A stretch of DNA of 64,000 nucleotides from Deltaproteobacteria bacterium (GTDB lineage: Bacteria; Desulfobacterota; JBBIRW01). Position 1 is the stretch's first letter; every line of letters begins with the position of its first letter. Both the position numbers and the translations under genes were made by a program. The notes below the pieces were generated by a model, which worked only from the letters and a program-made list of their open reading frames with translations, was not told the DNA's origin and made no database searches. Shown here piece after piece: positions 35,043 to 61,407 of the stretch. The stretch covers positions 1,707 through 65,706 of the forward strand of contig JBBIRW010000005.1 of assembly GCA_037441565.1 (NCBI GenBank). Direction: 5' to 3'.

Positions 35043-35360
35043 TTATTTCTTGTGGCACCTGTTGCAGGTTGCATTGTCGCTTGTTTTGAACGCCTTTTTA
35101 CCGTTGTGGCACTCACCACAGAACTTCCCCGCATTGAGATCAGCCATCTTCATCTTTGCCTCCCCAAACTTCATCTTGAAGATCTTTGGATGGCAATCAG
35201 CGCACTTCTGACCCTTGTTAGCATGAACCTTTCCATCAAATATCACCTTTCCAGCATCACCATCTTTCCACTCGAGGGTCTTTCCAGAACCTACTGCCAG
35301 GGCTGAAGTTGTAAAAGCAATGAGGAATATCACTGCAAATAACGAAATCGTCCTCATCAT
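35043..35360 (-). CDS. Periplasmic triheme cytochrome c7 (PpcA-like, cytochrome c3 superfamily)
   Basis: Signal peptide. Three CxxCH motifs (CADCH, CGECH, CNRCH) in an ~80-aa mature domain with bis-His spacing. Confidence 0.8.
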   Translation of the reverse strand: MMRTISLFAVIFLIAFTTSALAVGSGKTLEWKDGDAGKVIFDGKVHANKGQKCADCHPKIFKMKFGEAKMKMADLNAGKFCGECHNGKKAFKTSDNATCNRCHKK

Positions 35361-35640
35361 CCTTCACCTCCTTTCTTTGTTAGTGCCTCCAGACAAATGC
35401 CCTCTCTCTTTAATCTGGCTTCCTGTTATTTGGACGGATACGCTGGTATTTTATTTAAGAGATCGGGCATAAGTTTATACCATTACGGCTGTTATGTCAA
35501 AACAATATTTAACGCCGCAGGTTATTGAAAATATTGTGTATGGAGAGACTCAACAACCTTGGGAACAATAAAGATGTTAAGCGCGCTCTCAAGCTCCGTG
35601 GCAGGGCACAGGAAATGGAAACCCAATAAAGAAATAGGGA

Positions 35641-35743
35641 TTTGACAAAATGTCAATGATTTTTGTGATTTCACCTTAATTTTTAGACAAATTGTCAATC
35701 GATATCAGGGATCTTCTTCTATTTTTTGTCAAATTGGCAAAGT
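35641..35743. promoter_or_regulatory. Candidate operator array: GACA-N3-TGTC palindromes in the divergent cytochrome-c7 / synthase promoter region
   Basis: TTGACAAAATGTCAA (35642..35656, perfect 6-N3-6 inverted repeat), GACAAATTGTC (35687..35697), and a half-site TTGTCAAATTGGCAA (35726..35740). They lie in the 577-bp intergenic region. Confidence 0.35.
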
Positions 35744-35937
35744 TCCCATTTAATTTAACCTGCAAAAGGGGGAAAGGATGTAGTAAGTGAGCTTCAGAAA
35801 AGTATTTAAAGAATATGGCATTAGCCTTTATGTCCCATCAAAAGGGATTTATGCATGTTCTGGCTTTTATCTTGCTAAATGATTGTAGTTAGGCTAAATT
35901 ATTAATTAACTAAACAATCCAAAAGAAAGGAGGCTAT

Positions 35938-37308
35938 ATGATTGAGAGAAATCCAAAATCGGGCTTTCTGGAGTATAAAGAGAAGTTTGAGCTGAAGGAT
36001 ATTCCTGAACCAAATCTCCTCCGTGACATGTTCCCCTTCACGGAAATTCCAAGGATCACTTTTGACAACTTCATGGTCATGCCTGAGCTCCCCTCTGAGA
36101 TATGGATAACTGATACCACATTCAGGGATGGTCAGCAGGCAAGACCCCCTCTCACAGTGAAACAGATAGTTGACATCTATGACATGCTCCATAAGCTTAG
36201 TGGGCCGAATGGTGTCATCCGTCAGTGTGAATTCTTCCTCTATACGGAAAAGGACAGGGAGGCAGTGAGAAAGTGCCTGGAAAAGGGGTATCAGTATCCT
36301 GAAGTGACGGGATGGATAAGGGCAGTTGCGGCAGATTTCAAGCTTGTTAAGGACATGGGTCTAAAGGAGACCGGGATCCTCACATCCATCTCTGACTACC
36401 ATATCTTTCACAAGCTTAAAAAGAGCAGAAGAAAGGCTATTGATGATTATATTGCGCTTGTTAAAGAGGCAGCTGCTGCTGGTATGAAACAGGTAAGATG
36501 TCATCTTGAAGACCTCACAAGGGCAGACTTCTTTGGATGCGTTGTCCCTTACGTTCAGGAACTGATGAAGGTATCTGAAGAGGCAAAGATGCCAGTAAAA
36601 ATAAGACTTTGCGACACCATGGGATATGGTGTGCCCTGGCCATTTGCATCCCTTCCAAGGAGCGTTCCAAAGCTTGTCTGGGGTCTCAGACACTATTGTG
36701 GGGTCCCGCCTGAGAGACTCGAATGGCACGGTCATAACGACTTCCATCTTGTGCTTGCCAACGGGACAGCTGCATGGCTCTATGGTTGTTCAGCACTCAA
36801 CTGCACACTTCTCGGATTTGGTGAAAGAACAGGTAATCCACCCCTTGAAGGTGCTGTAATAACCTATGTGGAGCTCACCGGGAGTGAAAATGGCATGAAC
36901 CTCCATATGATAACAGAAATCGCAAAATACATGGAAAAGGAGTGCGGCTATCTTATCCCACCCTCCATGCCCTTTGTGGGTCAGAACTTCAACGTCACCA
37001 TGGCCGGGATACATGCTGACGGTATCATAAAAGACCCCGAGATCTACAACATCTTTGATACGGAGAAGATCCTCAACAGGCCCTTTGGTGTTAATATTAC
37101 AGATAAAACAGGACTTGCAGGGATTGCCTTCTGGATAAATCATCGCCTCGGCCTTAAAGGGGACAAACGCATTCCTAAATCCCATCCAGGGATTGCAAAG
37201 ATCGAGGAGTGGGTGCAGGAGCAGTACAAGATTGGAAGAAACACGGCAATTTCACCAGAGGAGCTCGAGGAGCAGGCAAGGAAGTGGCTCCCTGAATATT
37301 TCAAATAA
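35938..37308 (+). CDS. Homocitrate/2-isopropylmalate/Re-citrate synthase family (HMGL-like aldolase) protein
   Basis: WITDTTFRDGQQ catalytic N-terminal motif preceded by a ~50-aa extension, 456 aa. HxH metal-ligand region (WHGHNDFH). Size and N-terminal extension resemble clostridial Re-citrate synthase. Confidence 0.7.
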   Translation: MIERNPKSGFLEYKEKFELKDIPEPNLLRDMFPFTEIPRITFDNFMVMPELPSEIWITDTTFRDGQQARPPLTVKQIVDIYDMLHKLSGPNGVIRQCEFFLYTEKDREAVRKCLEKGYQYPEVTGWIRAVAADFKLVKDMGLKETGILTSISDYHIFHKLKKSRRKAIDDYIALVKEAAAAGMKQVRCHLEDLTRADFFGCVVPYVQELMKVSEEAKMPVKIRLCDTMGYGVPWPFASLPRSVPKLVWGLRHYCGVPPERLEWHGHNDFHLVLANGTAAWLYGCSALNCTLLGFGERTGNPPLEGAVITYVELTGSENGMNLHMITEIAKYMEKECGYLIPPSMPFVGQNFNVTMAGIHADGIIKDPEIYNIFDTEKILNRPFGVNITDKTGLAGIAFWINHRLGLKGDKRIPKSHPGIAKIEEWVQEQYKIGRNTAISPEELEEQARKWLPEYFK

Positions 37309-37312
37309 GGGA

Positions 37313-37345
37313 AAAGGGCATCCCCTCGGGGATGCCCTTTTTTAT
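37313..37345 (+). terminator. Rho-independent terminator after the synthase gene
   Basis: GGGCATCCCC TCG GGGGATGCCC stem followed by TTTTTTAT. Confidence 0.6.
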
Positions 37346-37375
37346 GACCAGAAATATCTTCCTGAGAAGAATTTT

Positions 37376-38443
37376 ATGCTATCCCGTGGAAAAATTTTGC
37401 AATCATTAATAATAATCCTCATACTTCTCCTCACAAATAGTTATTCCTGGGCATTGCTACCCATCCAGAAATGCCTGATATGTCATGGCAAAAGGGATTT
37501 TAAAAAGACTTACCCTGATGGAAAGGTAAAGCCATTATATGTGGACCCATTGATCATAGAAAAATCTGTTCACTCAAAAAAGATATGTACGGACTGCCAC
37601 TTTGATGCAGTTGAAATCCCTCATAGTAAGACTCCAGAAAGGGTTCAGTGCACAAGATGCCACTACAAGGGAAATCCTGAAGGTGCACCGCAATCAGATG
37701 CATATCTTGAATACAGGGAGAGCATCCATGGAAGGGCTGTAACTGCAGGCAATGCAGCAGCACCTGTATGTCAGGATTGCCATGGCACACATGACATACT
37801 TCATACGAAAAACCCACTGTCAAGGGTATCCCACGGAAGGGTGGCTGAGACATGTGGCAGATGTCATATGAGTATCTTTGCCCAGTACAGAAGCAGCATC
37901 CATGGTGTTGCCCTCTACGAAAGGAAGATACCTGAAGCGCCTGACTGCACAAGCTGTCATGGTGAGCACGGGATAAGATCACCGAAGGACCCAACATCAC
38001 CTGTGTATCCAACAAAGGTTACAAAAACCTGCTCCTCCTGTCATGAGGAAGAGGGGATTGTCGGTAAATACGGGATAAGAACGGAGCAGGTTGAGACTTA
38101 TAAAGAGAGCTTCCATGGTATTGCCATAAGATATGGTGCAAGGACGGTTGCAAACTGTGCAAGTTGTCACGGCGTCCATGACATAAGGCCGCCTGAAGAT
38201 CCGCTCTCCTCCGTATATATAAAGAACATCCCGCAGACATGCGGGAAATGCCATCCAGGTGCAAATATAAACTATGCGAGGGGGAAGATCCATGTGAATC
38301 CAAAAAAGAAGGAGTCAGGGATTGTCTACTGGGTCTCACTCTTCTTTAAATACTTTACATTTACGGTGATCCTTTCACTCATCGCCCATATATTCCTTGA
38401 TCTTTACAGAAGGGTCCAGGAATTGAGGGAAAAAAGAACCTGA
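37376..38443 (+). CDS. Nonahaem c-type cytochrome with C-terminal membrane anchor (CbcA-like)
   Basis: Signal peptide. Nine CxxCH motifs, several in the paired CxxCHGxHDI style with recurring SxHG. A C-terminal TM helix [25 protein letters not shown]. Confidence 0.8.
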
Positions 38444-38453
38444 TGGTGGAAAG

Positions 38454-39377
38454 ATGGATAAAGAAAAAAGGAAAGAGGTATTAAATCTGGAAGAGATTGC
38501 AAGAGAGATCGAGGAGGAGATCCTCAAGGAGCATGATAGGGAGATAACAGAGGAGTTACGGAATGAATTAAGAAAAATGGTAAGGGAAAGGGTGCTGCAA
38601 GGGGTAAGCAGTGAAATCCCATCCATTATTGAAGAGATAAAGAGAAAAAGGGGGATCGAAATCGAAGAGCACAGGAGGAAGGAGCACATTCAGGAAGAGG
38701 AGTTCCTCCGCTTCAACCTCCACTTCAGGATCCAGCACATGATCCTTTTTACCAGCGTAATAATCCTCATCCTTACAGGGCTTCCCCTCAGGTATCCGGA
38801 TTTTGAACCGCTTTCAGACCTCATCTGGCTCCTTGGAGGGATTGAATATTCAAGGGTCCTCCATAGGATAGGTGCTGCAGGCCTCATACTCGTTGCCATA
38901 TATCATACCCTTTATACCATCCTCCATCCTGATGGCAGGAGGGATTTTCTGCTTCTGATCCCAACACCAAAAGACTTCAAGGACTTCTATTTGCAGATCA
39001 ACTATTTCCTTGGCAGATCAAAGGAAAGACCGAAATTTGGAAGATTCAGTTATATAGAAAAATTTGACTACTGGGCTGTTTACTGGGGTTGTGTTATTAT
39101 GATCGGCTCTGGCCTTCCCCTATGGTTTGAAGAGATCTCCCTCAGGTTTCTTCCAAAATTCATCCTTGATATTTCCAAGGAGGCACACAGTGATGAGGCA
39201 CTTCTTGCGACCCTTGCCATAGTGATATGGCACTTCTACAATGTCCACTTCAATCCCGATAGATTCCCCATGAGCTGGACCTGGTGGACGGGGAGGATAT
39301 CAAAGCACGAGATGATGAAGGAACATCCTCTTGAATATGAAGAGATGATGGCAAAGAGGGGGAAGAAGGGGGATTAA
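38454..39377 (+). CDS. Dihaem b-type cytochrome membrane subunit (HydC/FdnI Ni_hydr_CYTB family, CbcB-like) with charged N-terminal extension
   Basis: Four TM helices with conserved His ([30 protein letters not shown]) and the C-terminal [14 protein letters not shown] tail. A ~95-aa Glu/Arg/Lys-rich N-terminal extension. Confidence 0.75.
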
Positions 39378-39380
39378 GAG

Positions 39381-41459
39381 ATGAGTTATATTCGCGAGAT
39401 CTCCTCACTCATAAAGGATTTTGTATCAAGTCTCTGGGCACTTATTAAGAGACATAAAAAAGCATCACTTCTACTTGTAGGTATTATCATTACGCTTTTC
39501 TTAATCTTCAATGCCTCCTTCTATGTTCTCTCCTACATCCCCAGGTCCTGCATTATCTGCCATTATATGGATCCATACTATAAGCAGTGGGCAACATCAA
39601 GGCATAACAACATCAGCTGCATAAGATGCCATCCTTTCAGACCTGCTTTCATCACGGTTGCAACAATTAAATATCTAACGGGCATTTACAATCCCAGACC
39701 TCATGCCATAGTTGAGGACAGGAGCTGCCTTCAATCAGGATGCCATCCCGAGAGACTGCTTGAGGGAAAGGTTGCATTTAAAAATAATATAATCTTCGAT
39801 CATAAACAGCACGTTGGGACAATAAAAAGGGGGGAAAGACTCAAATGTGCATCATGCCATGCACAGATCGTTCAGGGAAAGCATATCTCTGTTGATGAAA
39901 GGGTGTGTTTCCTCTGTCATTTCAAAGGCGCACCCGCAGGGACAGCAATGACGGGTTGTCCATCCTGTCATGGGACTCCTGCAAAGGCTGTTAAACATGA
40001 GGGGTTCGTCTTTAATCATGATCCATATATAAAGATGGGAGTAAGGTGTAATCAGTGTCACATAGAGGTATCCAGAGGACAGGGATCTGTGCTTGAGGAA
40101 AGATGTTTCTCCTGTCATGTCGAGAGGACAGAGAAATATAAAGACCCTATTTTACTCCATCAGGTCCATGTAACAAAAAGGAATTATGAGTGTTTTAGCT
40201 GCCACGAAGAGATAATCCACAGGAGTATAAGATTTGTTCGAACGCTGGAAGTAAAATGCCAGTCATGTCATGAAACCCTTCATAACATGCAGATGCAGAT
40301 GTATATGGGTGTTGGTGCAAAGGGTGTTTCCGATACACCAAGTATAATGTTTGCAACACAGGTTTCATGCGAGGGCTGCCATCTGAAATCTGTTGAAAAA
40401 ACAGGCATCATGAGGGATCGTAGTAGGCATATACAGATCATAAGGAATTCATGTGTTTCATGCCATGGCAAGTCATACGCAGGTATGGTTGACACCTGGA
40501 TTCAGGAATCAGATCGCGTGTTCCAGCAGGTATCGCAATTTGTTAATTATGCTGATGAAATCATCAAAAACTATCCAGAGAAACAGAAAAGGGTTCGTGA
40601 GGCAAGGGATCTTATAAGGGATGCAAAATACAATCTCGTATTTATAAAAGATGGTAAAGCCGCACATAATGTGCAATACGCATTGAGGATCCTTGCAACA
40701 GTATGGGAACAGGCATCCCTTGCACTGAAAGCAGTAAATGCATCATACACGGTTGATAAACCAGAACTCATAAAATCACCCTCAGTCTACTGCAACACAT
40801 TATGCCACAGCAGGATTATCCCGGCTTCCAATGTTTCCTTTAAGGATATGGCAATAAAGTTTCCCCATCATCTACATTCAAATCAGATGGGTATTGAGTG
40901 CACACAATGCCATCCGGCTAAAAAGCACAGAGCAGGTATTGTTAATAAAAAGGGGTGTAAAGATTGTCATCATACACCACAGACAGCTACATGCAGGGGA
41001 TGCCACCCTTATCAGGATGCCATCTATCATGGGAATATGAATATTCTTGGTATCAAGGCGTCTCCAGACATAATGGCAAAAGGTGTTTCCTGCAGGGAAT
41101 GCCATGAGCTTAAGGAAGGCAAACATACGATTGATCTCATTTCGGCAAGATGCGTTTCATGTCATAATAAAGAGTACAGGGATCTACTCAATTCGTGGAT
41201 AAGAGAAATTAATGAATCGCAGGGAGCTGTTGAAATAAAGATTTCTCAGTTAAGAGAAAAACTGGGCTTACTCCGAAAGGCAGGTCTTGATACATCATCC
41301 TATGAAAAAACCTTATCAGAAATTGAGCATTCAATATCACTTTTGAAGAGGGCGAAGGGTGTGCACAATTACGGATTCTCAATGCAGGTTATTTCCAGCG
41401 CACGTGATTCCCTGGACAGATCCATTGTTGAGATACAGAAACAATTAACACAGAGGTAG
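39381..41459 (+). CDS. NapC/NirT-type membrane-anchored multihaem c-type cytochrome (about 18 haem motifs)
   Basis: N-terminal TM helix followed immediately by CIICH...CIRCH, the NapC/NirT quinol-dehydrogenase pattern. Sixteen more CxxCH or CxxxCH motifs across 692 aa. Confidence 0.8.
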   Translation: MSYIREISSLIKDFVSSLWALIKRHKKASLLLVGIIITLFLIFNASFYVLSYIPRSCIICHYMDPYYKQWATSRHNNISCIRCHPFRPAFITVATIKYLTGIYNPRPHAIVEDRSCLQSGCHPERLLEGKVAFKNNIIFDHKQHVGTIKRGERLKCASCHAQIVQGKHISVDERVCFLCHFKGAPAGTAMTGCPSCHGTPAKAVKHEGFVFNHDPYIKMGVRCNQCHIEVSRGQGSVLEERCFSCHVERTEKYKDPILLHQVHVTKRNYECFSCHEEIIHRSIRFVRTLEVKCQSCHETLHNMQMQMYMGVGAKGVSDTPSIMFATQVSCEGCHLKSVEKTGIMRDRSRHIQIIRNSCVSCHGKSYAGMVDTWIQESDRVFQQVSQFVNYADEIIKNYPEKQKRVREARDLIRDAKYNLVFIKDGKAAHNVQYALRILATVWEQASLALKAVNASYTVDKPELIKSPSVYCNTLCHSRIIPASNVSFKDMAIKFPHHLHSNQMGIECTQCHPAKKHRAGIVNKKGCKDCHHTPQTATCRGCHPYQDAIYHGNMNILGIKASPDIMAKGVSCRECHELKEGKHTIDLISARCVSCHNKEYRDLLNSWIREINESQGAVEIKISQLREKLGLLRKAGLDTSSYEKTLSEIEHSISLLKRAKGVHNYGFSMQVISSARDSLDRSIVEIQKQLTQR

Positions 41460-41624
41460 GGGAGCTCAAGATTGGGATTTTCTTACATCGGGCTGCTTCA
41501 TCTTTTCGGAAGTAGATTGCATCATCTGTCTCATCCTCCTCTTCCTTGCCTTCTCCCTCCTCTTCCTTCTCCTTCTAATCTCCCTCATCCTTTCTGTAAC
41601 CATCTCCAGACCCCCTTATAACAT

Positions 41625-42287
41625 TCAGTGATCTATCTTAATTATTCCTCTCTGTATTGCATATTTTATAAGGGCTGCCCTTGAGTGTATTCCCAGTTTT
41701 TCACTGATGTTGCTTTGATGTGCAATAACAGTTTTTACACTCAAATTTAGAAGATCTGCTATCTCTTTGTGCGTATATCCCTCTGCAATAAGTCTTAAAA
41801 CCTGCTTTTCCCTATCAGTTAGCCTTTCATAAGGATCCTCCATCTCCATCTTTTTATCCAGATAAGTAGCAACTACTTCAGAAGTAATGGATGGATAGAG
41901 ATAGATCTCCCCTCTACTAACAGCTCTTATTGCAGAGATAAGGTCACTTCCCACAGCCTTTTTAAGGATATAGCCGGAAACACCTGCCTTCAAAAATCTC
42001 GAAATATACTCCCTGTCATCATACTGTGTCAGAACAAGGATCTTTGTTTCAGGTGAAATCCTTTTTATCTCAACTGTTGCCTCAAGTCCTCCAAGTTTTG
42101 GCATATTTATATCCATTATCACCACATCAGGCTGAAGTCTTTCGGCCTTTTTAATGGCCTCTATCCCATCAGATGCTTCACCTATAACCTCTATGTCGTC
42201 GCAAAGCTTGAGAAAGGCAGCAATACCTTCTCTGACTAATGCATGATCATCAGCTATTAGAACCTTTATCTTACGCATTCGATCCAT
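41625..42287 (-). CDS. NarL/LuxR-family response regulator
   Basis: Receiver (VLIADDH, D in VVIMDINMP) plus a LuxR HTH (LTDREKQVLRLIAEGYTHKEIA). Confidence 0.9.
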   Translation of the reverse strand: MDRMRKIKVLIADDHALVREGIAAFLKLCDDIEVIGEASDGIEAIKKAERLQPDVVIMDINMPKLGGLEATVEIKRISPETKILVLTQYDDREYISRFLKAGVSGYILKKAVGSDLISAIRAVSRGEIYLYPSITSEVVATYLDKKMEMEDPYERLTDREKQVLRLIAEGYTHKEIADLLNLSVKTVIAHQSNISEKLGIHSRAALIKYAIQRGIIKIDH

Positions 42288-44109
42288 CCTGATATCTGAC
42301 AGGTATATAAAGGCTTACTGTACAACCTTCTCCTGGTGCAGATCTTATCTCAAGCTCCCCACCTATAAGGGATGCCCTCTCCTTCATACCCATAATTCCG
42401 AGACCCCTACCATCCCTGAGATGACGACCTTCCCTATCAAAAAGAGATTCTATATCAAATCCCCTTCCGTCATCCTTTATTTCCATTCTTAACATATTTT
42501 CGTTGGCATCTATATTAAGGATAACATTTTCTGCATCCGAATGCTTTGAGATGTTAACAACAGCCTCCTGGATTATCCTGAACAGTGCAATCTCTATCTC
42601 TGGTGGAAACCTTTTCTCCTTCAGTCCCTTAATATTAAAGAAATAGTTTATCCCCTTTTCACCAAGATGGGTGTCAAAAAGCCATTTTATTGCTGCCTCA
42701 AGTCCAAGATCATCTATCATCGATGGCCTCAGGTTCTGTATTACGCTTAAAACCCCCTCCCATGCCCTCAATACGATATCCCTTAATTCTTCTGTCTTCT
42801 CCTTACCAAATTTTTCGGGATAAAGTCTGTACATATCAATCCTCATAAGTATGGCAGAAAGACTCTGCAGTATCTCATCATGGAGCTCTCTTGCAATCCT
42901 CTTTCTCTCCTCTTCCTGTGAACTTATTATCTTTTTTAGCAGGCTTTCAACCCTTTTCTGGCTCTCCTCAATCTGTCTTGTTCTTTCCCTCACACGATCC
43001 TCTAACTCAAGACTGTATTTCTTTATACTTTCCATGGATTCAAGCAGCCTTACCCTCATGATCTCAAAACTCTTTGCAAGCATTCCTATCTCATCGCTTC
43101 CATGATGCACAATGGGTTTTTCCAGCTCCCCACGGGCTATCCTCCCTGTTGCCTTTATAAGCTCCCTCACAGGATTCAGAATGCTCCTGTTGATCCCTAT
43201 CGTTAAGATAAAGGCGGTCAGAATAAACACAATGCCCATTGCAATAAATGTCTTTTTGAGTTTTTTTGCAGGTGAAAAAACATTCTCAACAGATTCCTGA
43301 ATCGATATCCCCCATGATGCGCTCTCCAGTGGCACAAATACAAGCATATTCGTAGTAATTGTTTTTTTACTGCCACTTTCGTGGCATTCATGGCAGGTTG
43401 TAACAAGCTCCTTTTTTGCATTTATTATTTTGCTGAAGTATTTATCATGATCACAACATATCAATACCCTTACAGGATCCGATGAAGCAATAACAACACC
43501 ATTTGCATCCATGATATCTATAAAAACATTTTTATTCTTTCCAACATCTGTTAATCCCAGTTCGTAAGAAAGGGTGGGATTGGTGGGATCTATCTCCCCA
43601 CCAACAGCACCGATAATGTTACCATTCCTGTCCTTAAGAGGCACGAGGGCAAAAATAACCTTTTTATTAAGGGGTTCAACAGTGTAAATATTCGATATCA
43701 CAGGCCTCCCTGTACCAATAATCCTTCGTATGGGCTCGACGCCGAGCAGATTCGTTCCAAAATCTCTCATCCTCTCAGGATAGTCGAGGATTAAGTTTCC
43801 GTTTCTGTCAAGAAGGAACACACCATCGGTAAAGAGGGAATATCTGTATGCAATACTCAATGCTTCCCTTTCAGGGTTAAAGTCATTGTCTGCAAGATCT
43901 ATACTTCCGGAAAGGGATATATCATAGAGGCGATTAAGGTTTGTTTTCAGTTTTTCTTCGATATTATTCCTGATAAGCCTCGCTATCTCGAACTTCCTTT
44001 CTATCGAATGCTCTATTGTCTTCTGTATTATGTAATAGCTTGCCAGTGCGAATACAGTAAGGATAATACCCATCCATAATGTAAGGGCTATGGCAATCCT
44101 CTTTCTCAA
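42271..44109 (-). CDS. Sensor histidine kinase (HisKA_3/NarX-type) with periplasmic sensor domain carrying a CxxCH haem-binding motif
   Basis: TM1 at residues ~5-28, a ~255-aa periplasmic domain, TM2, HAMP, the H-box ARELHDEIL and HATPase_c. The periplasmic domain contains TTCHECH (codons at 43381..43395) plus ICCDHD. Confidence 0.85.
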   Translation of the reverse strand: MRKRIAIALTLWMGIILTVFALASYYIIQKTIEHSIERKFEIARLIRNNIEEKLKTNLNRLYDISLSGSIDLADNDFNPEREALSIAYRYSLFTDGVFLLDRNGNLILDYPERMRDFGTNLLGVEPIRRIIGTGRPVISNIYTVEPLNKKVIFALVPLKDRNGNIIGAVGGEIDPTNPTLSYELGLTDVGKNKNVFIDIMDANGVVIASSDPVRVLICCDHDKYFSKIINAKKELVTTCHECHESGSKKTITTNMLVFVPLESASWGISIQESVENVFSPAKKLKKTFIAMGIVFILTAFILTIGINRSILNPVRELIKATGRIARGELEKPIVHHGSDEIGMLAKSFEIMRVRLLESMESIKKYSLELEDRVRERTRQIEESQKRVESLLKKIISSQEEERKRIARELHDEILQSLSAILMRIDMYRLYPEKFGKEKTEELRDIVLRAWEGVLSVIQNLRPSMIDDLGLEAAIKWLFDTHLGEKGINYFFNIKGLKEKRFPPEIEIALFRIIQEAVVNISKHSDAENVILNIDANENMLRMEIKDDGRGFDIESLFDREGRHLRDGRGLGIMGMKERASLIGGELEIRSAPGEGCTVSLYIPVRYQDGSNA

Positions 44110-44208
44110 GTTCTTACCTTCCCCGACCTTTAAGATCCTGATAATATATCAATTTAAATTATAAGTTATCCGATGAAAAAAGCCAGAAGGGCAGCAACAT
44201 CTGCCCCA

Positions 44209-44961
44209 TCACTCGGAAGAATGAACTACTTCCTTATGTGGATGGCCACCAGCAATCTCCAGGATTTCATCTATTTTCTTTCCCTCGATCCTCGCAAGCT
44301 CTAAGGGGTGCTCGTGAAGCATCCTCTCCCTTGATATATATCCCGTGAATATACATGTGTCTATGGGGAATACCTCGGGGCTGAAGACTGAATTGTAAAT
44401 ATGCCATGTAACGATAACCAGAAATGCAAGGAGTGCTTCATTTGTATGAGCTGCCTTTGCAGCAGGTATAACCTCTCCAGGAAGAAATCTTGCAAATACT
44501 GTTGGATACCAGAGTATAAACCCTGTAATTATCATGATCAATCCACCCAGAATAACACCCCAGTATTCGAATTTCTGTCTGTAGTCGTATCTATCACAAA
44601 GTGCGGGATAATCTGTGAAGCCAAAGTAGTATCTGAGATTTGTTATTGCATCGGTAAAATCTTTCCTTGTAATAACCATTGAAGCAGGCCATTTCTTAAA
44701 TATTACACCGAACGATCCAACAACAATGTGCTGGAGAACAAGGATTGAAAATAGAAGTCCCATATAGCGATGTATTATCCTTGTCATATTTATCCCACCC
44801 ATCTTCATTATTATCCAGTGGGATAACTCTAAGTTATAAAATTTTTGTGAAAGTCCGGTGATAACGAGAATTACAAAAACTATTGCATTAAGCCAGTGTT
44901 CAATGATCCTTAGGATATGGAATCTCTTTATGTATATAGTTTCCTTCTCATTTTTTCTCAT
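44209..44961 (-). CDS. Dihaem b-type cytochrome membrane subunit (Ni_hydr_CYTB family, CbcB-like)
   Basis: Paralogue of 38454..39377, with the same His-containing helices and the HEHPLE tail. Confidence 0.8.
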   Translation of the reverse strand: MRKNEKETIYIKRFHILRIIEHWLNAIVFVILVITGLSQKFYNLELSHWIIMKMGGINMTRIIHRYMGLLFSILVLQHIVVGSFGVIFKKWPASMVITRKDFTDAITNLRYYFGFTDYPALCDRYDYRQKFEYWGVILGGLIMIITGFILWYPTVFARFLPGEVIPAAKAAHTNEALLAFLVIVTWHIYNSVFSPEVFPIDTCIFTGYISRERMLHEHPLELARIEGKKIDEILEIAGGHPHKEVVHSSE

Positions 44962-44971
44962 AACCCTCCTC

Positions 44972-46402
44972 CTATCTGTTTACTGCGTATCTCCATATAT
45001 GGAGCAGTATCTGCAATATAAGACCTATCATCATGAATGGAATAAAAATTCTGTAAAATAGCTTCACAAGGAATACAAGTGGTGCCTTTTTGAGTGTTGG
45101 CTCATAATGTGATAACCATGCATCAGGAAAATTCTCTGTTGCATCAGGATGACACTTCATGCAACTTTTCACAAGATTCTTCTTCAATACATTCGATGAT
45201 GGTCCTGATGTTTTTGTTATATCATGTATGCCATGGCAGTCTGTGCACACAGCAATACCTTTGTCCGGTCTTACAGCCATGTTCTTTTCCTTCCGATAAA
45301 AGCTGAGTGTTATTCCATGAAAGTCCTGAAGGTAGTTGTTAATCACATCTGTTGATAGACCATATTTGGACATAATCTGTTTGTTTGAATGGCAATTACC
45401 ACATATCTCAGGGACTTTTTCCTTGTAATCAAAGGTCCTCGGATCCTCGATATCATGTGCTCTGTGGCAATCCGTGCATACAGGAACATCCTGATTTGAT
45501 TCATTTATAAGTGCATTTCCATGAATACTTTTTGCATAAACATTATATATATTCTCGTGACACCTTCTGCATCTCTTTGAACTCCATACCTTTTCAAGAC
45601 CTGCCCTTCCTATGGAATGGGAGCCGTGACAGTCAATACACACAGGCGCATTCAGATTGCCCTGGCTGAGCATTGTATAGTGAATGCTTTCCAGTGCCTT
45701 TGTATATTTATCGAAATGGCATCTCCTGCAGACCTCGGAGTTCGCAATCCTGAACTCCCGTTCATTCCTGAAATTCCTTTTTGGATGCTGGGATCTTGAA
45801 AATCCAAAATGGCAGTCCGAACAGCTCAACCTGCTGTGAACGGATTCCTTCAATACCCCCGAATCTATCTTCAAGACAATCCTTTCTCCGCTTTTAAATA
45901 ACATCTCTATATTATGGGCATGACAGCTCATGCAATATTCCCTTTCGTTTGAAAAAACCCTTCCACCGGAAATGGGGCTAACAGCATGTGATCCATGACA
46001 ATCTGTACACACAGGTGCCCTGCCCTCCCTCTCTCTTACGATAAGATTTGCATGAATATCCTTTGACATCAGTTGCTTTTCCGGATGACACTTCCTGCAG
46101 ATAAGAGCACTCTTTAATTTATATTCCTTCTTACTTCTAAATTTTCCAGAAGGATGATCTTCCATGGAAAAACCTGTATGGCAATCCGAGCATGTGAAGG
46201 AGGAGTGAACAGAAGATTTTAGTTTCCCTATATCAATAAAGACATCAATGGCTTCGCCATTTTCAAATTTCTTTATAATCCCTTTTTTTGAATGGCATTC
46301 AAGACAGGCAGAAACCTCCTCCGGAGTTGAAGAGGCTTCTGCCTTAATGGTGGACATCATCAATAGAATTATGAAAGCAATCAGTATTTTTCTCCTCAAC
46401 AT
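44972..46402 (-). CDS. Tridecahaem c-type cytochrome with C-terminal membrane anchor (CbcA-like)
   Basis: Signal peptide. 13 CxxCH motifs with internally repeated modules (SVHS...CSDCH(T/F)GFS...HP). C-terminal TM helix. Confidence 0.8.
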   Translation of the reverse strand: MLRRKILIAFIILLMMSTIKAEASSTPEEVSACLECHSKKGIIKKFENGEAIDVFIDIGKLKSSVHSSFTCSDCHTGFSMEDHPSGKFRSKKEYKLKSALICRKCHPEKQLMSKDIHANLIVREREGRAPVCTDCHGSHAVSPISGGRVFSNEREYCMSCHAHNIEMLFKSGERIVLKIDSGVLKESVHSRLSCSDCHFGFSRSQHPKRNFRNEREFRIANSEVCRRCHFDKYTKALESIHYTMLSQGNLNAPVCIDCHGSHSIGRAGLEKVWSSKRCRRCHENIYNVYAKSIHGNALINESNQDVPVCTDCHRAHDIEDPRTFDYKEKVPEICGNCHSNKQIMSKYGLSTDVINNYLQDFHGITLSFYRKEKNMAVRPDKGIAVCTDCHGIHDITKTSGPSSNVLKKNLVKSCMKCHPDATENFPDAWLSHYEPTLKKAPLVFLVKLFYRIFIPFMMIGLILQILLHIWRYAVNR

Positions 46403-46411
46403 AGGACCCCC

Positions 46412-46762
46412 TTATCCAGGATCTTTTTTAACCTTCTTGCTGCTCCTCCTTCCTCCAAGATATGCCTCGGTAAGTCTCCATCCGAAGGAGGAAATACTCC
46501 ATGCGAGTTTTGAGATTGCACTGAAGACCTTCATTGCAACCACACCAACAACCATGAGTATTGTGATAAGAGGGAGAAAGATAGCATAGAGCAGACCAAG
46601 CACAGGACTGATGATGAGCACGAAAGGTGCTGGCATTCTGAGATAGATTGTTGAGCTTTCGCCAGGAAGAACCCCTTCATGCTCCATCTCCACCCTTTCT
46701 CCTGTTAGAGGATTCCAGTACGTCCCCTTAATTACCTTTTCCCCACCTCTGTATCTTAACAT
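46412..46762 (-). CDS. Small two-TM membrane protein, first gene of the minus-strand cytochrome operon
   Basis: Strong SD GAAAGGAGGTGA. 116 aa with two hydrophobic helices. Confidence 0.45.
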   Translation of the reverse strand: MLRYRGGEKVIKGTYWNPLTGERVEMEHEGVLPGESSTIYLRMPAPFVLIISPVLGLLYAIFLPLITILMVVGVVAMKVFSAISKLAWSISSFGWRLTEAYLGGRRSSKKVKKDPG

Positions 46763-46832: not shown

Positions 46833-46875
46833 TTGGAAGAATTTCCTAATTTGAAGGGAATATTTTCCTAATTTT
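46833..46875. promoter_or_regulatory. Tandem GGAA-N4-TTCC palindromes (candidate operator) upstream of the minus-strand cytochrome operon
   Basis: GGAAGAATTTCCTAATTT at 46835.. and GGAATATTTTCCTAATTT at 46856... That is 21 nt apart. Each is an inverted GGAA/TTCC repeat followed by TAATTT. Confidence 0.3.
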
Positions 46876-46889
46876 TGCCCTTAAGTTGC

Positions 46890-47417
46890 TTATTGACGAA
46901 CACTCTCTGCTATCCTTAATAGTTCGATGGGGGTTGATTTCATTGAAATGGTCATCCTGAATCCATCCTCAGTCCAGCTTATTTTGCTGCATGCCTCCTC
47001 ATCCTCACAAATACCTACCAAAAGATCAGCCTCCTTTCCTTTCAGGCTATATTTAACACTTTCCCTTACCCTTACGATTCTAATCTCCCTTTCCTCAGTA
47101 ATATGCCTGTTGAGTTCTACCTGGTATATGATCATGACAACCTCACCACTGCCACCATGCCTGAATTTTAAAACAACTGCCTTATAGGGCTTCCCCTGCG
47201 CAAGTATCTCCGATGGAGGCCAGTTAATTCCCTGAGGAAAATATGATGGAACGTATATATGATCTATCTTAATCCTATGTTTAGCCTCCTCGATACTCCT
47301 GTACCTCTGGAGAGTTTCCCTGTTAATGATGGATGGGATAAAATTAATCACTTTAAGTGATATAATCAAAATTAAAAGCATAAACAAAAAAATCAGGATG
47401 TTTAAAGCCTTTTTCAT
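46890..47417 (-). CDS. Hypothetical membrane-anchored protein
   Basis: 175 aa, N-terminal TM helix. It follows an M56-type peptidase gene with a 4-nt overlap. Confidence 0.4.
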   Translation of the reverse strand: MKKALNILIFLFMLLILIISLKVINFIPSIINRETLQRYRSIEEAKHRIKIDHIYVPSYFPQGINWPPSEILAQGKPYKAVVLKFRHGGSGEVVMIIYQVELNRHITEEREIRIVRVRESVKYSLKGKEADLLVGICEDEEACSKISWTEDGFRMTISMKSTPIELLRIAESVRQ

Positions 47418-48409
47418 ATTATGAAGTAGTTTATCAAAGTTACTGCAATCAGAGTTAATATAAATTCAAACCATCTCTCTCCATCCTGATCAATTCTATC
47501 CCTTGAAAGCCTTTCTTTTCTCCTCTTTATTACCATTCTATGTGTGTATTCCTGGACCCCCCTTTTTAATGAGTATATACCACCTGTATTTTCAACCCCT
47601 CCTGTCTCCCTCATATATATTTTCTCCAATGCAGATGCTAATTCCAGCGACCTTCCTGTCATCCTCACAGCAGCATCATCACATATCATCTCCTCCTCCT
47701 CAAGCATCCTCCGAAATTCAATGAGAATAACAGGGTTGAAGAAATTGATTATTCTCAAAAAAAACATAATGAACAAATAGGGTCTCTTAGACCTTTTAAT
47801 GTGAGCCCTTTCATGGCCTATAACAGCATCAAGCTCATCCTTTGTAAGGGTATTAATCAATTTTCCCGAAAGATAAATGGCGCTATTCTTACCAATCCTC
47901 GAATAAAGGGTGAAATCCTTATCATCAATGATGATCAAACGCACTTTCCCATTTAAATATTTCAATTCATTTACCCTTCCATCCTCCTCCATTTTTTCTC
48001 CTGCATACTTCCTTGTCTCGTATATATGCCTGATGATCGGGATCAATTCCTGAAAGATAAAGATAATGGATGTGACTGCCAGAATAACAAGAAAAAGCCA
48101 TTGCATGGATATCATTCCCCATAAATTAATGCTAAAAAAGCTTGTGCTGTCAAAAAGGGAGTCTGCCCTGAATGAAAGGCATGTTCTATAAGGATCTATT
48201 ATGTGATAGAAATAAAAGGAAAAGACAGGAAATGCAATAACAATGAATCGAAACCTCTGTGAAACAGAAGGATCTGTTATCTTCCATATGCTGATGGAGT
48301 AATTCACAATCAGTGCCGTAATTAAAGAGTGAAAAAACGATTGCGAAACATACATTCCAATACTGGAGGTAAATATATACTGCATCCCCATAGTCCATTC
48401 CATTTTCAT
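47414..48409 (-). CDS. M56/M48-type zinc metallopeptidase membrane protein (BlaR1-like sensor/peptidase family)
   Basis: Multiple TM helices. HExxH motif IGHERAHIKR within a cytoplasmic loop. Confidence 0.65.
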   Translation of the reverse strand: MKMEWTMGMQYIFTSSIGMYVSQSFFHSLITALIVNYSISIWKITDPSVSQRFRFIVIAFPVFSFYFYHIIDPYRTCLSFRADSLFDSTSFFSINLWGMISMQWLFLVILAVTSIIFIFQELIPIIRHIYETRKYAGEKMEEDGRVNELKYLNGKVRLIIIDDKDFTLYSRIGKNSAIYLSGKLINTLTKDELDAVIGHERAHIKRSKRPYLFIMFFLRIINFFNPVILIEFRRMLEEEEMICDDAAVRMTGRSLELASALEKIYMRETGGVENTGGIYSLKRGVQEYTHRMVIKRRKERLSRDRIDQDGERWFEFILTLIAVTLINYFII

Positions 48410-49787: not shown

Positions 49788-52149
<2,362 letters not shown>

Positions 52150-53231
52150 CGTAAATCCTTATAATCCTGTAAAGTGTATCACGCTCAACAGGTATCTTTC
52201 CCGCCTTTCTTATCAGACGGATCAATTCGCCCTTTGGTAGAAATTCATCTGTCATTGCACCGGCAGAATGTGTAATCTTCTCCTCAACAACCGTTCCATC
52301 AAGATCATCAGAACCAAAAAGCAGTGACAGCTGGGCTATCTTTTTTCCTAACATTATCCAGAACGACTTTATATGAGGGAAATTGTCAAGGAAAAGTCTT
52401 GAGACTGCTATTGTCTTCAAATCATCAATAGCCGTTGTATAGTTTGCCCCATTAATCCTTGTATTTTTCGGGTGGAAGGCAAGGGGGATAAATGCCTGGA
52501 ACCCTCCTGTTTCATCCTGAAGTGCTCTCAGGAGTGAAAGATGATGAACCCTGGACTCATAATCCTCGAGATGACCATAAAGCATTGTAGCATTGGATCT
52601 TATTCCAAGGCGATGCGCAGTTCTCATAATCTCGAGCCAGCGTTCTCCCGTTATCTTTTCCGGACAGATCCTTTCCCTTATCCTTTTTTCAAATATTTCA
52701 GCACCTCCACCGGGAAGTGATCCCAGTCCTGCCTCTTTCAATTCCAGCAGGACATCTCCTATCGATTTTCCAGAAATCCTTGAAAAATAATCAATCTCAA
52801 CAGCAGTGAAAGCCTGAAGATGCACAGCTGGAAACTCTCTTTTTATAACCCTTAGCATTTCAATGTAAAATTCATATGGGAGTTCAGGATGAAGGCCTCC
52901 CACTATATGAATCTCTGTTGCGCCGAGAGCCATAGCCTCCCTTGTTCTTTCGAGAATCTCATCAATTGTCAGTGTGTATGCACCACTATCACCTTTATCC
53001 TTGCTGAATGCACAGAATCTGCATCTATTGATACATATGTTACTTGGGTTTATATGTCTGTTTACAACAAAATACACATAATCACTATTTTTCTTCCTTG
53101 AAACGTAATGAGCGAGCTCACCAATAGTTAATAGATCATCGCTCTTGAACAAAAGAATTGCATCTTCCTCTGTTAATCTTTCACCCGAAAGCACTTTTCT
53201 CTCTATAATCTTAAGTGACATCCCGATCCTT

Positions 53232-57951: not shown

Positions 57952-58662
57952 CTACCTGAGCCTGAACTCTACAGGAAGGATTATCCATCCATCATATGGG
58001 GGGTATTCCTTTATGGAGAGGAGGGCATTTATCACGGATCTGTCAAGCTCATCCCATCCAGATGAAGAAATAATCTTATACCCGGTAACCCTTCCACTGT
58101 TGTCGATATGGAACGAAAGCCTAATCCTTCCCTCGTGCCCCATTTTTCTTGAACTTTCAGGATAAACAATTGCATTGAGTATCCTTCTCCTTATCTCTTC
58201 AAGGAGATATCTCTCATTGGAAGAACTGCCACTGCCTTCAATGGACCCGCCATCATATTCAGTATTTCCGTTATCTCCAGATTGGATTGATAAATCTTCT
58301 TCGTACCCATTATTAAAAGAATAGGTCTCAAATATTCTTCCATTTCCGCTTTCAACCTTCAGGGGACCATGGTTTTCTCCACCTTCAATAATACCTTCCC
58401 TTTCTGAATTGCCGATGATTTCTTTTTTCAATCCTTCCATTGCCTGTAAGATACGCATATCCATCCCTTTTTTTCGAACATTGGGGTATCTGACTATTTG
58501 GTCATCACCAATTATCTCGATGTTGATCATTACATCCTTTTTATTTTTCTCACCTTTCTCCAGAGAAAGGGGGGTGTTGTTAAAGGCCAATATTAAGAAA
58601 AAATGGATCAGAAATGATGCTGCCATGAATCTCCAGATTTTCAAATCTACTTCGTTTCGCAT
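57952..58662 (-). CDS. tonB: TonB-family energy transducer
   Basis: N-terminal TM anchor (AASFLIHFFLILAF), proline/charged linker, C-terminal TonB_C-like domain. The start is trimmed to the MRNEV Met to remove the overlap with the upstream ATPase gene. Confidence 0.65.
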   Translation of the reverse strand: MRNEVDLKIWRFMAASFLIHFFLILAFNNTPLSLEKGEKNKKDVMINIEIIGDDQIVRYPNVRKKGMDMRILQAMEGLKKEIIGNSEREGIIEGGENHGPLKVESGNGRIFETYSFNNGYEEDLSIQSGDNGNTEYDGGSIEGSGSSSNERYLLEEIRRRILNAIVYPESSRKMGHEGRIRLSFHIDNSGRVTGYKIISSSGWDELDRSVINALLSIKEYPPYDGWIILPVEFRLR

Positions 58663-59378
58663 CCAAATAACTCCCCTAATCCACTTTTCTTCATTAAAAG
58701 TGACGAGGGACCATCGTCCACGATGCATCCATCCTTCATTATGATCAACCTGTCGCTAAATTCTGCAAGGTTTCTTATGTTATGGGAGACAATTATGGTT
58801 GAAATTCCCTTTTTCTTTCTCAGCTCCATAAGCATCTTTAATATTTCGCTCTGGTATGAAATGTCAAGATAAACGAGCGGTTCATCCATTATTATTACCT
58901 CAGCCCTCTGCGCAAGAACCCTTGCTATAAAAACCCTCTGTCTTTCACCACCACTCAATTCCTGAATGTATCTGTCCCGGAGCTGAATCGTTGATGTTTC
59001 CTCCATTGCCTCAAGTGCAATATAAATATCCTCTTCATCTTCCATATCAAAATATCTCATGTATGGATACCTTCCCATAATAACAAAGTCCAGGACCTTG
59101 AAAGGAAAACCGTCAGGGATTATCTGCGGAAGAACGCCAACAATACATGCCATCTCTCTCCGAGTATAGCTGTGTAAAGGCCTTCCTTTGAGGTATATTT
59201 CCCCTTTCTCAGGGGTGTAATAGCCCGTAATTAACTTTATAAGCGTAGATTTTCCGCAGCCATTAGGCCCAACAATCCCAACACCCTCTGATGGATAAAC
59301 CTTCATATTAATGTTCCTCAAGGACCAGCCACCCTTTTTATAGGAAAAGTACACATCAATAACATCATATATGAGCAT
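58647..59378 (-). CDS. Iron/cobalamin-type ABC transporter ATP-binding protein (FecE/BtuD-like)
   Basis: Walker A GPNGCGKST, signature LSGGERQR, Walker B IMDEP. Confidence 0.85.
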   Translation of the reverse strand: MLIYDVIDVYFSYKKGGWSLRNINMKVYPSEGVGIVGPNGCGKSTLIKLITGYYTPEKGEIYLKGRPLHSYTRREMACIVGVLPQIIPDGFPFKVLDFVIMGRYPYMRYFDMEDEEDIYIALEAMEETSTIQLRDRYIQELSGGERQRVFIARVLAQRAEVIIMDEPLVYLDISYQSEILKMLMELRKKKGISTIIVSHNIRNLAEFSDRLIIMKDGCIVDDGPSSLLMKKSGLGELFGCETK

Positions 59379-60381: not shown

Positions 60382-60383
60382 AT

Positions 60384-61268
60384 CTATCTTCTTCCATGGA
60401 GAATACTGAAAAGCTCCTCCACGCCTTCGATAAATCTGGGACCGGGTCTCTCATAGTAATCCGGGTTTACCCTGTACACTCTTCCATCCTTAATTGCATC
60501 GACCATCTTTAACAAACTTCCATCCTCGCCCGATAGGTATTTTCCATCCACATCCCCGCCAAGGATGATAACCTCTGGGTTCATTCTAAGGATATCCTCT
60601 CTGCTTAACCTTGGATATTTTGTATTACCATTGCGGGCAACATTAAGACCTCCTGCAAGCTCTATCATTTCATCTATAAATGTCCCTCCCCCAACTGCTA
60701 TCATAGGCCTCTCCCATATAAGGAAAAGAACCCTGGTCCTCCTCAATCCCCTGCTCTGCTTCCTTATGGATTCTATCCTCTCAATAATTCCATTAATAAG
60801 GGATTCCGATTTATCTTCACTATTAGTGAGTTTTCCTAAGATCCTTATCGAATCAAGAATCTGGGGTATACTGCCAGACCCCAGTATAAAGGTCTTGATC
60901 CCCAGGGATTCAAGCCTTGAAACTACATCCCTTCTGCTCCCTTCTTTGCTCATCATGACAATATCGGGTTTCAGTAAAAGGATCCTCTCGTAGTCAGGAT
61001 CGAGCATTCCACCAACCTTGGCTATGGATGATGTTTGCGGAGGATAATTACAATATCTTGTAACGCCCACAACCCTTTCACCCTGGCCAATTGCAAAGAT
61101 CAATTCCGTAATTGAAGGTGCAAGACTTACTATCCGGGATGGTGGATTATTGATGCTGACATTTCTGCCCGCATGATCCCTAATGATCATGCCATTTGTT
61201 TCGAAAGGGAAAAGGAGAAGGAGAAGGCTAATTATTACTGTTTTCATCATCCTTTTTTTCATCCCCAC
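60384..61268 (-). CDS. Periplasmic substrate-binding protein (BtuF/cobalamin-binding type)
   Basis: Signal peptide, class III SBP layout. It sits within the riboswitch-controlled operon. Confidence 0.7.
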
Positions 61269-61407
61269 CCCTTTCCCCTACCATTACATATTCTTCATCA
61301 AGCCACTTCCCGAGGTCTATGAGCTTGCATCTTTCAGAACAGAAAGGTCTGTAAGGATTGCCCTCCCATTCGACCTTCTTTTTACATGTTGGGCACTTAA
61401 CCTTCAT
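61228..61407 (-). CDS. yacG: YacG-like zinc-finger protein (DNA gyrase inhibitor family, DUF329), 59 aa
   Basis: Not in the ORF track. It reads [40 protein letters not shown]..., the CPxC...RPFCSxRC...DLGxW signature. Its ATG overlaps the TGA of the receptor gene (TGATG). Confidence 0.65.

Follow-up and report, generated by a model that had tools for sequence, protein, structure and literature searches.

Two convergent multihaem cytochrome units, each with a putative split CbcL-type pair, in a genome of the Desulfobacterota

When several multihaem cytochromes are encoded side by side, do they form one respiratory system or several, and in which direction would they move electrons? This question is raised by a 64,000-nucleotide stretch of DNA from a Deltaproteobacteria bacterium (GenBank assembly GCA_037441565.1, contig JBBIRW010000005.1, positions 1,707 to 65,706 of the forward strand), which at its full 64-kb length is referred to here as the window. 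All five open reading frames (ORFs) of the window with at least three CxxCH motifs fall in 35.0-46.4 kb, and no further ORF has more than one such motif. A preliminary description, made from the sequence alone, had read this region as a single cytochrome island, complete with a triheme cytochrome c7 at one end and a two-component system of its own. The nine ORFs that it listed were all found, at the positions and on the strands where it had placed them, but the island breaks down into two respiratory units, each conserved independently of the other and convergent in orientation. On the plus strand, unit A (37376-41459) is a trio that encodes a 9-haem cytochrome c (cytc9), a cytochrome b (cytb1) and an 18-haem cytochrome (MHC18). 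On the minus strand, unit B (48409-41625) comprises the genes for an M56 peptidase, a 175-aa protein, a small membrane protein, a 13-haem cytochrome c (cytc13), a second cytochrome b (cytb2), a sensor histidine kinase and a response regulator. The locus is lineage-specific only in its combination, as its parts are recognisable, widespread and uncharacterised, and it is not unique. For its function we favor, at a probability of roughly 0.55, electron transfer between menaquinol and periplasmic cytochromes by two split CbcL-type pairs and the NrfH-type MHC18, with the preferred direction being outward to low-potential acceptors.

Conservation and distribution of the two units

Genes are closely packed within each unit, with spacings of 3-10 nt (10 nt between cytc9 and cytb1, 3 nt between cytb1 and MHC18, and 10 nt between cytc13 and cytb2), and the two units face each other. 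This convergent juxtaposition is retained in relatives down to 75% protein identity and is confined to the lineage of the window; close relatives do not explain the locus functionally. A search of the island against Rfam gave no match. The gene order and homology of unit B are kept in all four distant relatives with long contigs, the ~175-aa and ~115-aa proteins included, and in each of these loci the regulator gene directly follows the kinase gene. Identities to the window across the four loci are 38-41% for the M56 peptidase, 39-48% for the 175-aa protein, 45-47% for the small protein and 67-75% for the regulator. None of the four carries the trio near unit B.

The trio has a wide distribution of its own. 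Scanning species genomes with MHC18 returned 443 related stretches, in lineages that include Ignavibacteria, Calditrichota, Latescibacterota, Zixibacteria, NC10/Methylomirabilis, Thermoanaerobaculia and Eisenbacteria, and the trio cluster is also found in Thermoanaerobaculum and Deferrimicrobia. We annotated 79 trio-anchored loci by ORF calling and blastp, 65 of which were informative in that they retained enough upstream sequence. In 57 of these 65, drawn from many phyla, a 9-haem cytochrome c and a cytochrome b are encoded directly upstream of the 18-haem gene. The cytc9 orthologues at these loci are typically 51-69% identical to the window protein (59-62% for orthologues in other phyla), and the ~312-aa cytochromes b are typically 46-63% identical to cytb1. 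Most trio loci also have, co-directional and upstream, an 11-haem cytochrome c (~420 aa) with a 231-aa cytochrome b, and a ~700-aa 11-haem c-b fusion. At the Aminicenantia locus, 8- and 10-haem cytochromes and a Porin_4 outer-membrane protein directly precede the modules, and Hdr-like and NiFe-hydrogenase genes come after the cluster. The arrangement of the window had at first been taken for one not previously described; it is not without precedent, as the trio recurs and was seen earlier as "cluster 1" of Ca. Deferrimicrobium borealis SHF-111 (Begmatov et al., 2022; PMC9386147). That cluster holds four multihaem cytochromes (9-16 CxxCH) and two cytochromes b with four transmembrane (TM) helices; it was proposed, as a prediction only, to be a quinone-pool-linked Fe(III)-reduction complex, with the 16-CxxCH protein placed at the outer membrane (PMC9386147).

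Some Desulfobacterota relatives encode more quinol-linked modules after the trio (L004:12020-15864, CP070770.1; on the minus strand downstream in L012, L014-L016, L034 and L070). These are of two types, one with a bc1/b6-type Cytochrome_B, a 419-aa multihaem cytochrome and a 426-aa NapC/NirT cytochrome, and the other with an 11-haem MHC18 paralogue of ~500 aa and a 7-9-haem partner.

Family identity of the cytochrome pairs and of the 18-haem protein

To what families do the paired cytochromes b and c belong? Both b subunits, cytb1 (38454-39377, plus) and cytb2 (44209-44961, minus), are 4-TM dihaem proteins of the FdnI/HydC fold, as had been predicted, and pass the Pfam Ni_hydr_CYTB cutoff (PF01292; 55.2 and 53.9 bits, respectively, against 30.1). 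cytb2 matches E. coli FdnI (1kqf_C) at E 8.6e-8, with H22, H64, H172 and H187 aligned to FdnI H18, H57, H155 and H169, and the equivalents of these ligands in cytb1 are H95, H137, H245 and H260. The four haem-ligand histidines are about 100% conserved in all three b subfamilies described below, together with a fifth histidine in TM2 (cytb1 H151, cytb2 H78). The partner c subunits, cytc9 (37376-38443, plus) and cytc13 (44972-46402, minus), each have a signal peptide and a C-terminal TM anchor that carries a conserved histidine near its cytoplasmic end (IAHIF in cytc9, LLHIW in cytc13). This residue is at least 90% conserved in both families and about 70% conserved in the 11-haem family. The split modules therefore conserve six TM histidines, two beyond the need of two bis-His haems, and the surplus could provide alternative ligation, have a role in a quinone site or bind a third haem. 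The extra TM2 histidine is absent from one Geobacter-type CbcL sequence inspected by eye (P0399). A further trait of cytb1 is an N-terminal cytoplasmic extension of ~85 aa (window 38454-38708), about 50% charged, which is characteristic of its subfamily (median 85 aa) and is perhaps the linker remnant of a c-b fusion.

The counts of 9 and 13 CxxCH motifs in the two c subunits agree with the preliminary description, as do its reading of them as diverged paralogues (34% identity, E 5e-60; 34% and E 1e-41 for the b subunits) and of the c+b module as duplicated with different haem numbers. cytc9 aligns to the C-terminal nine haems of cytc13, and the first four haems of cytc13 are an internal duplication, such that cytc13 consists of a 9-haem unit and a duplicated 4-haem N-terminal unit. 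The cytc13 family has more than 7000 homologues. The best 120 listed are 53-60% identical, bar one 96% relative, and mostly labelled Nitrospirae/Nitrospirota; exactly 13 CxxCH motifs are present in all 107 members of 465-500 aa among these 120. In a neighbor-joining tree of the b subunits, three separate clades are resolved, one for the trio, one for the 231-aa proteins and one for the partners of 13-haem cytochromes; the last of these, with cytb2, is typical of Nitrospirota. Orthology between the 13-haem/b pair and the 11-haem/231-aa b pair was ruled out on this basis, and the second pair of the window is a third paralogue.

The wider b family comprises 2269 representatives at 50% clustering, and 60 of the 150 best cytb1 relatives are fused to domains with 3-25 haems, so split and fused forms coexist in it. 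The characterised fused form is Geobacter CbcL, for which 51 CbcL-type proteins (Geobacteraceae, Desulfuromonadales, Desulfuromonas), fetched with optical character recognition (OCR) fragments of a published alignment, served as stand-ins for full-length GSU0274. One CbcL fragment aligns to cytb1 at z = 9, although the OCR of that alignment is garbled. All 51 proteins match both cytb1 (median 104 bits) and cytb2 (median 88.6 bits), the best CbcL-type match being P0416 to cytb1 (39% over 228 aa, E 5e-46). cytb1 is 29-43% identical to CbcL-type b domains, with a Geobacteraceae orthologue at 43%. A partial c-b fusion (P0433) bridges the two subunits, its residues 1-141 aligning to cytc9 216-354, anchor included (E 1.4e-18), and its residues 137-299 to cytb1 63-212 (E 4e-16), collinear with cytc9 followed by cytb1. 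Based on the homology of the b subunits and on this collinear fusion, each c+b pair is predicted to be a split form of the CbcL/MtoC/MtrH family.

The third member of the trio, MHC18 (39381-41459, plus), had been described as a NapC/NirT-type cytochrome of about 18 haems joined to these modules. The number is borne out by 16 CxxCH motifs, C116-x4-CH and C471-x3-CH, and the type can be given more exactly as NrfH, within the NapC/NirT superfamily, from the CxxCHxM motif at haem 1. Both non-canonical and all 16 canonical motifs are invariant in a 20-member family alignment from several phyla, and in P0239 and P0240, the most distant members, a plain CxxCH stands in place of the CX4CH site, which makes the 18 haem sites a well-supported property of the family. 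A single TM helix at the N-terminus is followed by a tetrahaem module, with its four sites (C57, C80, C116 and C156) within about 130 residues. Haem 1 reads C57-x2-CH-x-M63, with M63 at least 90% conserved, and haems 1-2 match D. vulgaris NrfH (2j7a_C) without gaps. The TIGR03153 NrfH profile aligns over positions 9-136 of 138 (E 9e-13) at 48.5 bits, short of its cutoff of 134.2. MHC18 has no PF03264 match in Pfam and scores below the curated NapC/NirT/NrfH thresholds (TIGR03153, TIGR02161, PF03264). The N-terminal TM helix and the NrfH-type module argue for an inner-membrane location. The rest of the protein carries 14 haems and two long Cys-free helical hairpins with invariant H-N motifs. 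Its 382 homologues in a large protein collection are all full length, are 35-45% identical bar two close relatives, and come from Deferrimicrobiaceae, other Desulfobacterota, Acidobacteriota and Aminicenantia. The Aminicenantia/Acidobacteriota versions have a ~90-aa insertion with 3 extra CxxCH motifs, bringing them to 21 sites (P0193, P0194; L007:10001-12319; alignment columns about 540-635). Sequence searches of the PDB with the c subunits and MHC18 were set aside, as they gave weak or spurious matches only, including one to interferon gamma on a helical hairpin.

Regulation of unit B and the flanking genes

How far does the regulation encoded in the island extend? The sensor kinase (42271-44109, minus) and the NarL/GerE-type response regulator (41625-42287, minus) form the two-component pair that had been proposed, with dCache_1-HAMP-HisKA_3-HATPase and REC-GerE domains, respectively (Pfam; Response_reg 98 bits and GerE 70 bits for the regulator). 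The kinase contains a T-C-H-x-C-H motif at residues 238-243, within the periplasmic dCache_1 domain that lies between two TM helices, and this c-type haem motif is kept in five of six lineages. Because the haem motif in the Cache domain is conserved, the kinase is probably a c-haem sensor and can be described as a putative haem-c Cache sensor. We know of no haem-c Cache sensor kinase that has been characterised.

A candidate operator for the regulator lies at 46835-46870 (minus) and consists of a TAGGAA-N4-TTCC palindrome that is repeated in tandem at a distance of 22 bp (positions -106 and -84 relative to the start codon of the small-protein gene). The tandem pair is kept in all six lineages while its flanks diverge, and accounts for two of the three exact matches in the window. 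We suggest that the regulator would bind here. An operator look-alike upstream of cytc9 was rejected, as it is not conserved even in the 93-96% relative, and so was a 9-mer common to the upstream regions of both units, which had been considered as a regulator motif but is not conserved in the 93-96% relative and occurs at a frequency near chance. The conserved synteny and the restriction of the operator to unit B, with the cytc9 look-alike not conserved, indicate that the two-component system is dedicated to unit B. The dedicated system originally assigned to the whole island is thus retained for one half of it.

Unit B begins upstream of the genes first assigned to it, with a BlaR1-like M56/M48 membrane metalloprotease (47414-48409, minus; Peptidase_M56, 55.1 bits), which is the first gene of the conserved neighborhood, and the conserved 175-aa protein, which is membrane-anchored or secreted (46890-47417, minus). 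The small membrane protein (116 aa; 46412-46762, minus) is encoded by the first gene of a small-c13-b transcription unit and has a hydrophobic hairpin at residues 39-88. Neither it nor the 175-aa protein matched a Pfam family. The small protein is weakly similar to HmcD-like (PF28260 DVU_0533) proteins, with an E of about 1e-7 in a small database, and HmcD-like genes of relatives are located at L092:6602-7030 and L093:6758-7150. A terminator-like hairpin follows cytb2 at 44207-44188. Downstream of the response regulator, an extremely basic, Arg/Lys-rich ORF of 45 aa (41466-41603, minus; MVTERMREIRRRRKRREKARKRRMRQMM...) is a gene call in L001, L009, L010 and L095 and is conserved to the 75%-identity lineage.

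The other end of the supposed island is the gene for a PpcA-like triheme cytochrome c7 with a signal peptide (35043-35360, minus; 3 CxxCH, as counted before). It passes the curated c7 thresholds (Pfam Cytochrome_C7 PF14522, 66 bits against a cutoff of 24.8; TIGR04257, 79.5 bits against 40), and scores 26.8 against the Geobacter equivalog NF043011, where the threshold of 120 is not reached. The gene is monocistronic, with a promoter-like site at 35500-35472 and a terminator at 35020-35003, and an unrelated HMGL-like gene followed by a strong hairpin lies between it and the trio. Between 56402 and 35630, the window matches GCA_037446715.1 at 99.8% identity, and synteny stops at the latter position. 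In that assembly and in the 93-96% relative GCA_964505185.1, 9-haem and NHL-propeller 10-haem cytochromes replace the c7, a radical-SAM gene and mnmG. In two related genomes, the region left of the HMGL gene holds 9-haem and NHL-propeller 10-haem cytochromes, a secreted repeat protein and ResB, and L001 and L009 carry other cytochromes at the position of the c7. In an independent Logan assembly of this sample, the contig on the side of the c7 stops at 35533, and the one that carries the island starts at 35717. Synteny and assembly therefore break at about 35534-35716, and the junction is backed by the window's own assembly only. Based on this breakpoint, the separate contigs, the promoter and terminator of its own and the intervening HMGL-like gene, the c7 is at best loosely associated with the island and possibly mis-joined to it. 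The single island once drawn around all of these genes contains the genes as listed, but its minus-strand unit runs on to 48409 and its c7 neighbor is not a conserved one. A porin initially suspected beside the island in close relatives was also dismissed, as the 400-aa neighbor is a secreted repeat protein and not barrel-like.

Two further features of the window, both in keeping with the functional model below, may be recorded here. About 5 kb from the island, two adjacent Radical_SAM/CofH_C genes (51100-53221, minus) are MqnC/MqnE-like, of the futalosine route to menaquinone. A B12 uptake operon (57952-63613, minus) comprises a cobalamin riboswitch (114.9 bits) and, after it, genes for a TonB-dependent receptor, a periplasmic binding protein, a FecCD permease, an ABC ATPase and TonB; the TonB-dependent receptor shows that the organism is a diderm.

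Proposed function, alternatives and known systems

How might these parts work? In the model that we favor, the b subunit of each pair would use two b haems, stacked across the membrane, to exchange electrons with menaquinol/menaquinone, and the c subunit would be docked to it by its anchor helix in the manner of FdnH and FdnI. The haem wire of the c subunit would have soluble cytochromes of the periplasm, for example the nearby c7, as its electron acceptors or donors, and MHC18 would provide a second, periplasmic-side quinol site of the NrfH type along with a long 18-haem wire. Electrons would flow outward, from menaquinol oxidation to c7-type carriers and on to low-potential periplasmic or extracellular acceptors, as in Geobacter CbcL. 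The kinase would sense the periplasmic redox state via its haem and control unit B through the tandem operator. We infer the quinol specificity, the direction of flow, the partners and any complex formation among the members of the trio. The outward direction is preferred by analogy with CbcL and from context, which includes the porin and cytochromes of the Aminicenantia locus, the occurrence in Thermoanaerobaculum and Deferrimicrobia, and the NHL-propeller cytochromes of relatives. The extracellular or potential-dependent electron transfer first suggested for the island is in this respect reasonable, if unproven.

Several observations weigh against this outward model. No outer-membrane cytochrome-porin conduit or terminal reductase is encoded in the window, and these subfamilies are without an experimentally studied member. 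Units A and B are neighbors only in the lineage of the window, no link was found between the regulator and unit A, and the adjacency of the c7 is not conserved. The AlphaFold2 model of MHC18, built from 20 sequences, is of moderate quality (pLDDT 69, pTM 0.45), and a Foldseek search with it against the PDB gave no match at E <= 0.001. The direction could also be the reverse, because Fe(II) oxidisers have members of this family as well, and quinone reduction is the native activity of the FdnI fold. Were flow to run inward, the modules would be periplasmic-cytochrome:menaquinone reductases that form redox loops in the FdnI direction. Their electrons would come from a syntrophic partner, from Fe(II), or, via c3/c7 cytochromes, from a hydrogenase or formate dehydrogenase of the periplasm, and energy would be conserved as thought for Qrc, Hmc and MtoC. 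The conserved FdnI fold and ligand set are in keeping with this alternative, as is the report that the fused CbcL/MtrH/MtoC family spans 15 phyla with both Fe(III) reducers and Fe(II) oxidisers, for which bidirectionality was proposed (PMC6295460). In two relatives (L092 and L093), HmcD-like, FeS and NrfD genes stand between the small-protein gene and the genes of the 13-haem/b pair, with a cytochrome c3 gene as well in L092, and these Hmc-like inserts hint that unit B might serve the metabolism of hydrogen, formate or sulfur in the periplasm. The weak HmcD-likeness of the small protein and the Hdr-like and NiFe-hydrogenase genes after the Aminicenantia cluster fit the same pattern. However, the characterised member, Geobacter CbcL, works outward to PpcA, an NrfH-type module such as that of MHC18 is characteristically a quinol dehydrogenase, and the window has no hydrogenase, formate dehydrogenase or Dsr genes. 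On balance, we regard inward flow as unlikely.

A separate matter is whether the neighbors form a system at all. Units A and B could be independent, with different partners and different regulation, and the c7 could be unrelated or joined to them by assembly. We give this a somewhat better chance than inward flow, although still as a minority view, and it touches the coupling of the units rather than their biochemical function, such that it is compatible with the outward model. In addition to the absence of the trio from all four distant unit B loci, none of the 79 trio-anchored loci of other lineages has the small protein of unit B or such a NarL-type kinase/regulator pair, and the second c+b pair at those loci belongs to a different clade. 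The operator upstream of unit B only and the separate Logan contigs on the two sides of the 35534-35716 break point the same way. Conversely, relatives as distant as 75% protein identity retain the convergent placement, and the trio in other phyla almost always has extra CbcL-like units, making joint modules a recurring theme. A further reading, which joins the three members of the trio in a single supercomplex of the inner membrane with a quinone site on each face (FdnI-type near the cytoplasmic b haem, NrfH-type on the periplasmic side), appears quite improbable to us. If it were true, the supercomplex could serve as a Q-loop built of cytochromes only, or could switch, gated by potential, between energy-conserving and energy-dissipating exits from the menaquinone pool; the fifth TM2 histidine and the anchor histidine could give alternative or third b-haem ligation; and it would be a widespread respiratory device of many phyla, so far undescribed. 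Finally, the proteins might be components of a nitrite, hydroxylamine or sulfite reductase (NrfH/NrfA, Hao or MccA type). The N-terminus of MHC18 is NrfH-like, the c subunits give weak, sub-threshold NrfB/NrfH matches, and the best fold matches of the MHC18 model are NrfA, octahaem nitrite reductase (ONR) and MccA. These fold matches are not significant and were discarded as unusable (E 0.08-0.5, TM <=0.24). None of the proteins has a CxxCK motif, there is no above-threshold Pfam/NCBIfam match to NrfA, Hao or MccA, Cytochrom_C552 is hit by cytc13 only and at 19.5 bits against a cutoff of 24.1, and no catalytic subunit is encoded in the window or in any related locus. The reductase explanation, which the preliminary description had named, for nitrite and hydroxylamine, among the findings that would undo its own, is therefore effectively refuted.

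To our knowledge, experimental evidence on where extracellular electron transfer enters or leaves the inner membrane comes only from Geobacter and Shewanella. The loci described here suggest that the CbcL type also exists in split form, in several paralogous clades, one of which is fixed in a conserved operon alongside an NrfH-type cytochrome of 18 haems, itself uncharacterised, in phyla among which are Deferrimicrobia, Acidobacteriota, Ignavibacteria, NC10 and Zixibacteria. Current marker-gene surveys, aimed at fused CbcL, ImcH or CymA, would miss such split forms, so that potential respirers of metals, humics or electrodes would be under-counted. Unit B in turn offers a testable regulatory circuit made up of the putative haem-c Cache kinase, the NarL-type regulator and the conserved tandem operator.

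Among characterised systems, the closest to the c+b pairs is CbcL of Geobacter sulfurreducens (GSU0274), which has nine c haems, as in cytc9, and donates electrons to the c7 cytochrome PpcA, its known partner (PMC9129911). The histidine pattern also matches, with one in the first helix (here the c anchor) followed by an FdnI-like set. CbcL, however, is a single six-helix fusion, whereas in the window c and b are separate polypeptides (1 + 4 TM) with stop codons and 10-nt gaps between their genes. The window b subunits further differ in their invariant extra TM2 histidine and cytb1 in its 85-aa charged extension, the second module has 13 haems, and the first is operon-linked to the 18-haem NrfH-type protein. 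The preliminary description had instead matched the pairs to Geobacter CbcBA (GSU0593-0594). What holds of that match is the split architecture, with an anchored c gene directly upstream of the gene for a 4-TM dihaem PF01292 cytochrome b, the conserved histidine in the c-subunit anchor, and an operon under dedicated regulation. CbcA, in contrast, has 7 haems against 9 and 13 in the window, and CbcB has three haem-ligand histidines, with the fourth from CbcA (Joshi et al.), against four of FdnI type plus one. CbcBA is under sigma54 and a divergent BccR, whereas the window has a HisKA_3/NarL two-component system, and Pfam and NCBIfam searches gave no Sigma54_activat protein in or beside the island. 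CbcL and CbcBA are reported to lack sequence homology to each other (Joshi et al.), and by sequence the pairs appear CbcL-like, which argues indirectly against CbcBA.

With E. coli formate dehydrogenase-N (1KQF), the window shares a b subunit that aligns to FdnI with all four ligands and a partner that, like FdnH, gives one C-terminal TM helix. Here, the periplasmic wire is made of c haems in place of FeS clusters, no catalytic subunit is present, and the anchor helix and TM2 carry the conserved and extra histidines, respectively. MHC18 resembles the NrfH/NapC-NirT proteins (NrfH 2J7A, CymA, ImcH) in its one N-terminal TM helix followed by four haem sites and in the CxxCHxM at haem 1. In contrast to these proteins of about 160 aa, it is 692 aa long, fused to 14 more haems and two hairpins, has CX4CH at haem 3, lacks an NrfA partner and scores far below the family thresholds. 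The nearest counterpart of unit A as a whole is cluster 1 of Ca. Deferrimicrobium, in which all three members of the window trio have orthologues (a 9-haem c, a 4-TM b and a 16-CxxCH cytochrome). Identity to Deferrimicrobiaceae loci is 43-45% for MHC18 and about 60% for cytc9. Cluster 1 adds an 11-haem c-b fusion and an 11-haem c/231-aa b pair, co-directional and without a two-component system, whereas in the window the further unit is a 13-haem/b one, which belongs to a different clade and converges with the trio.

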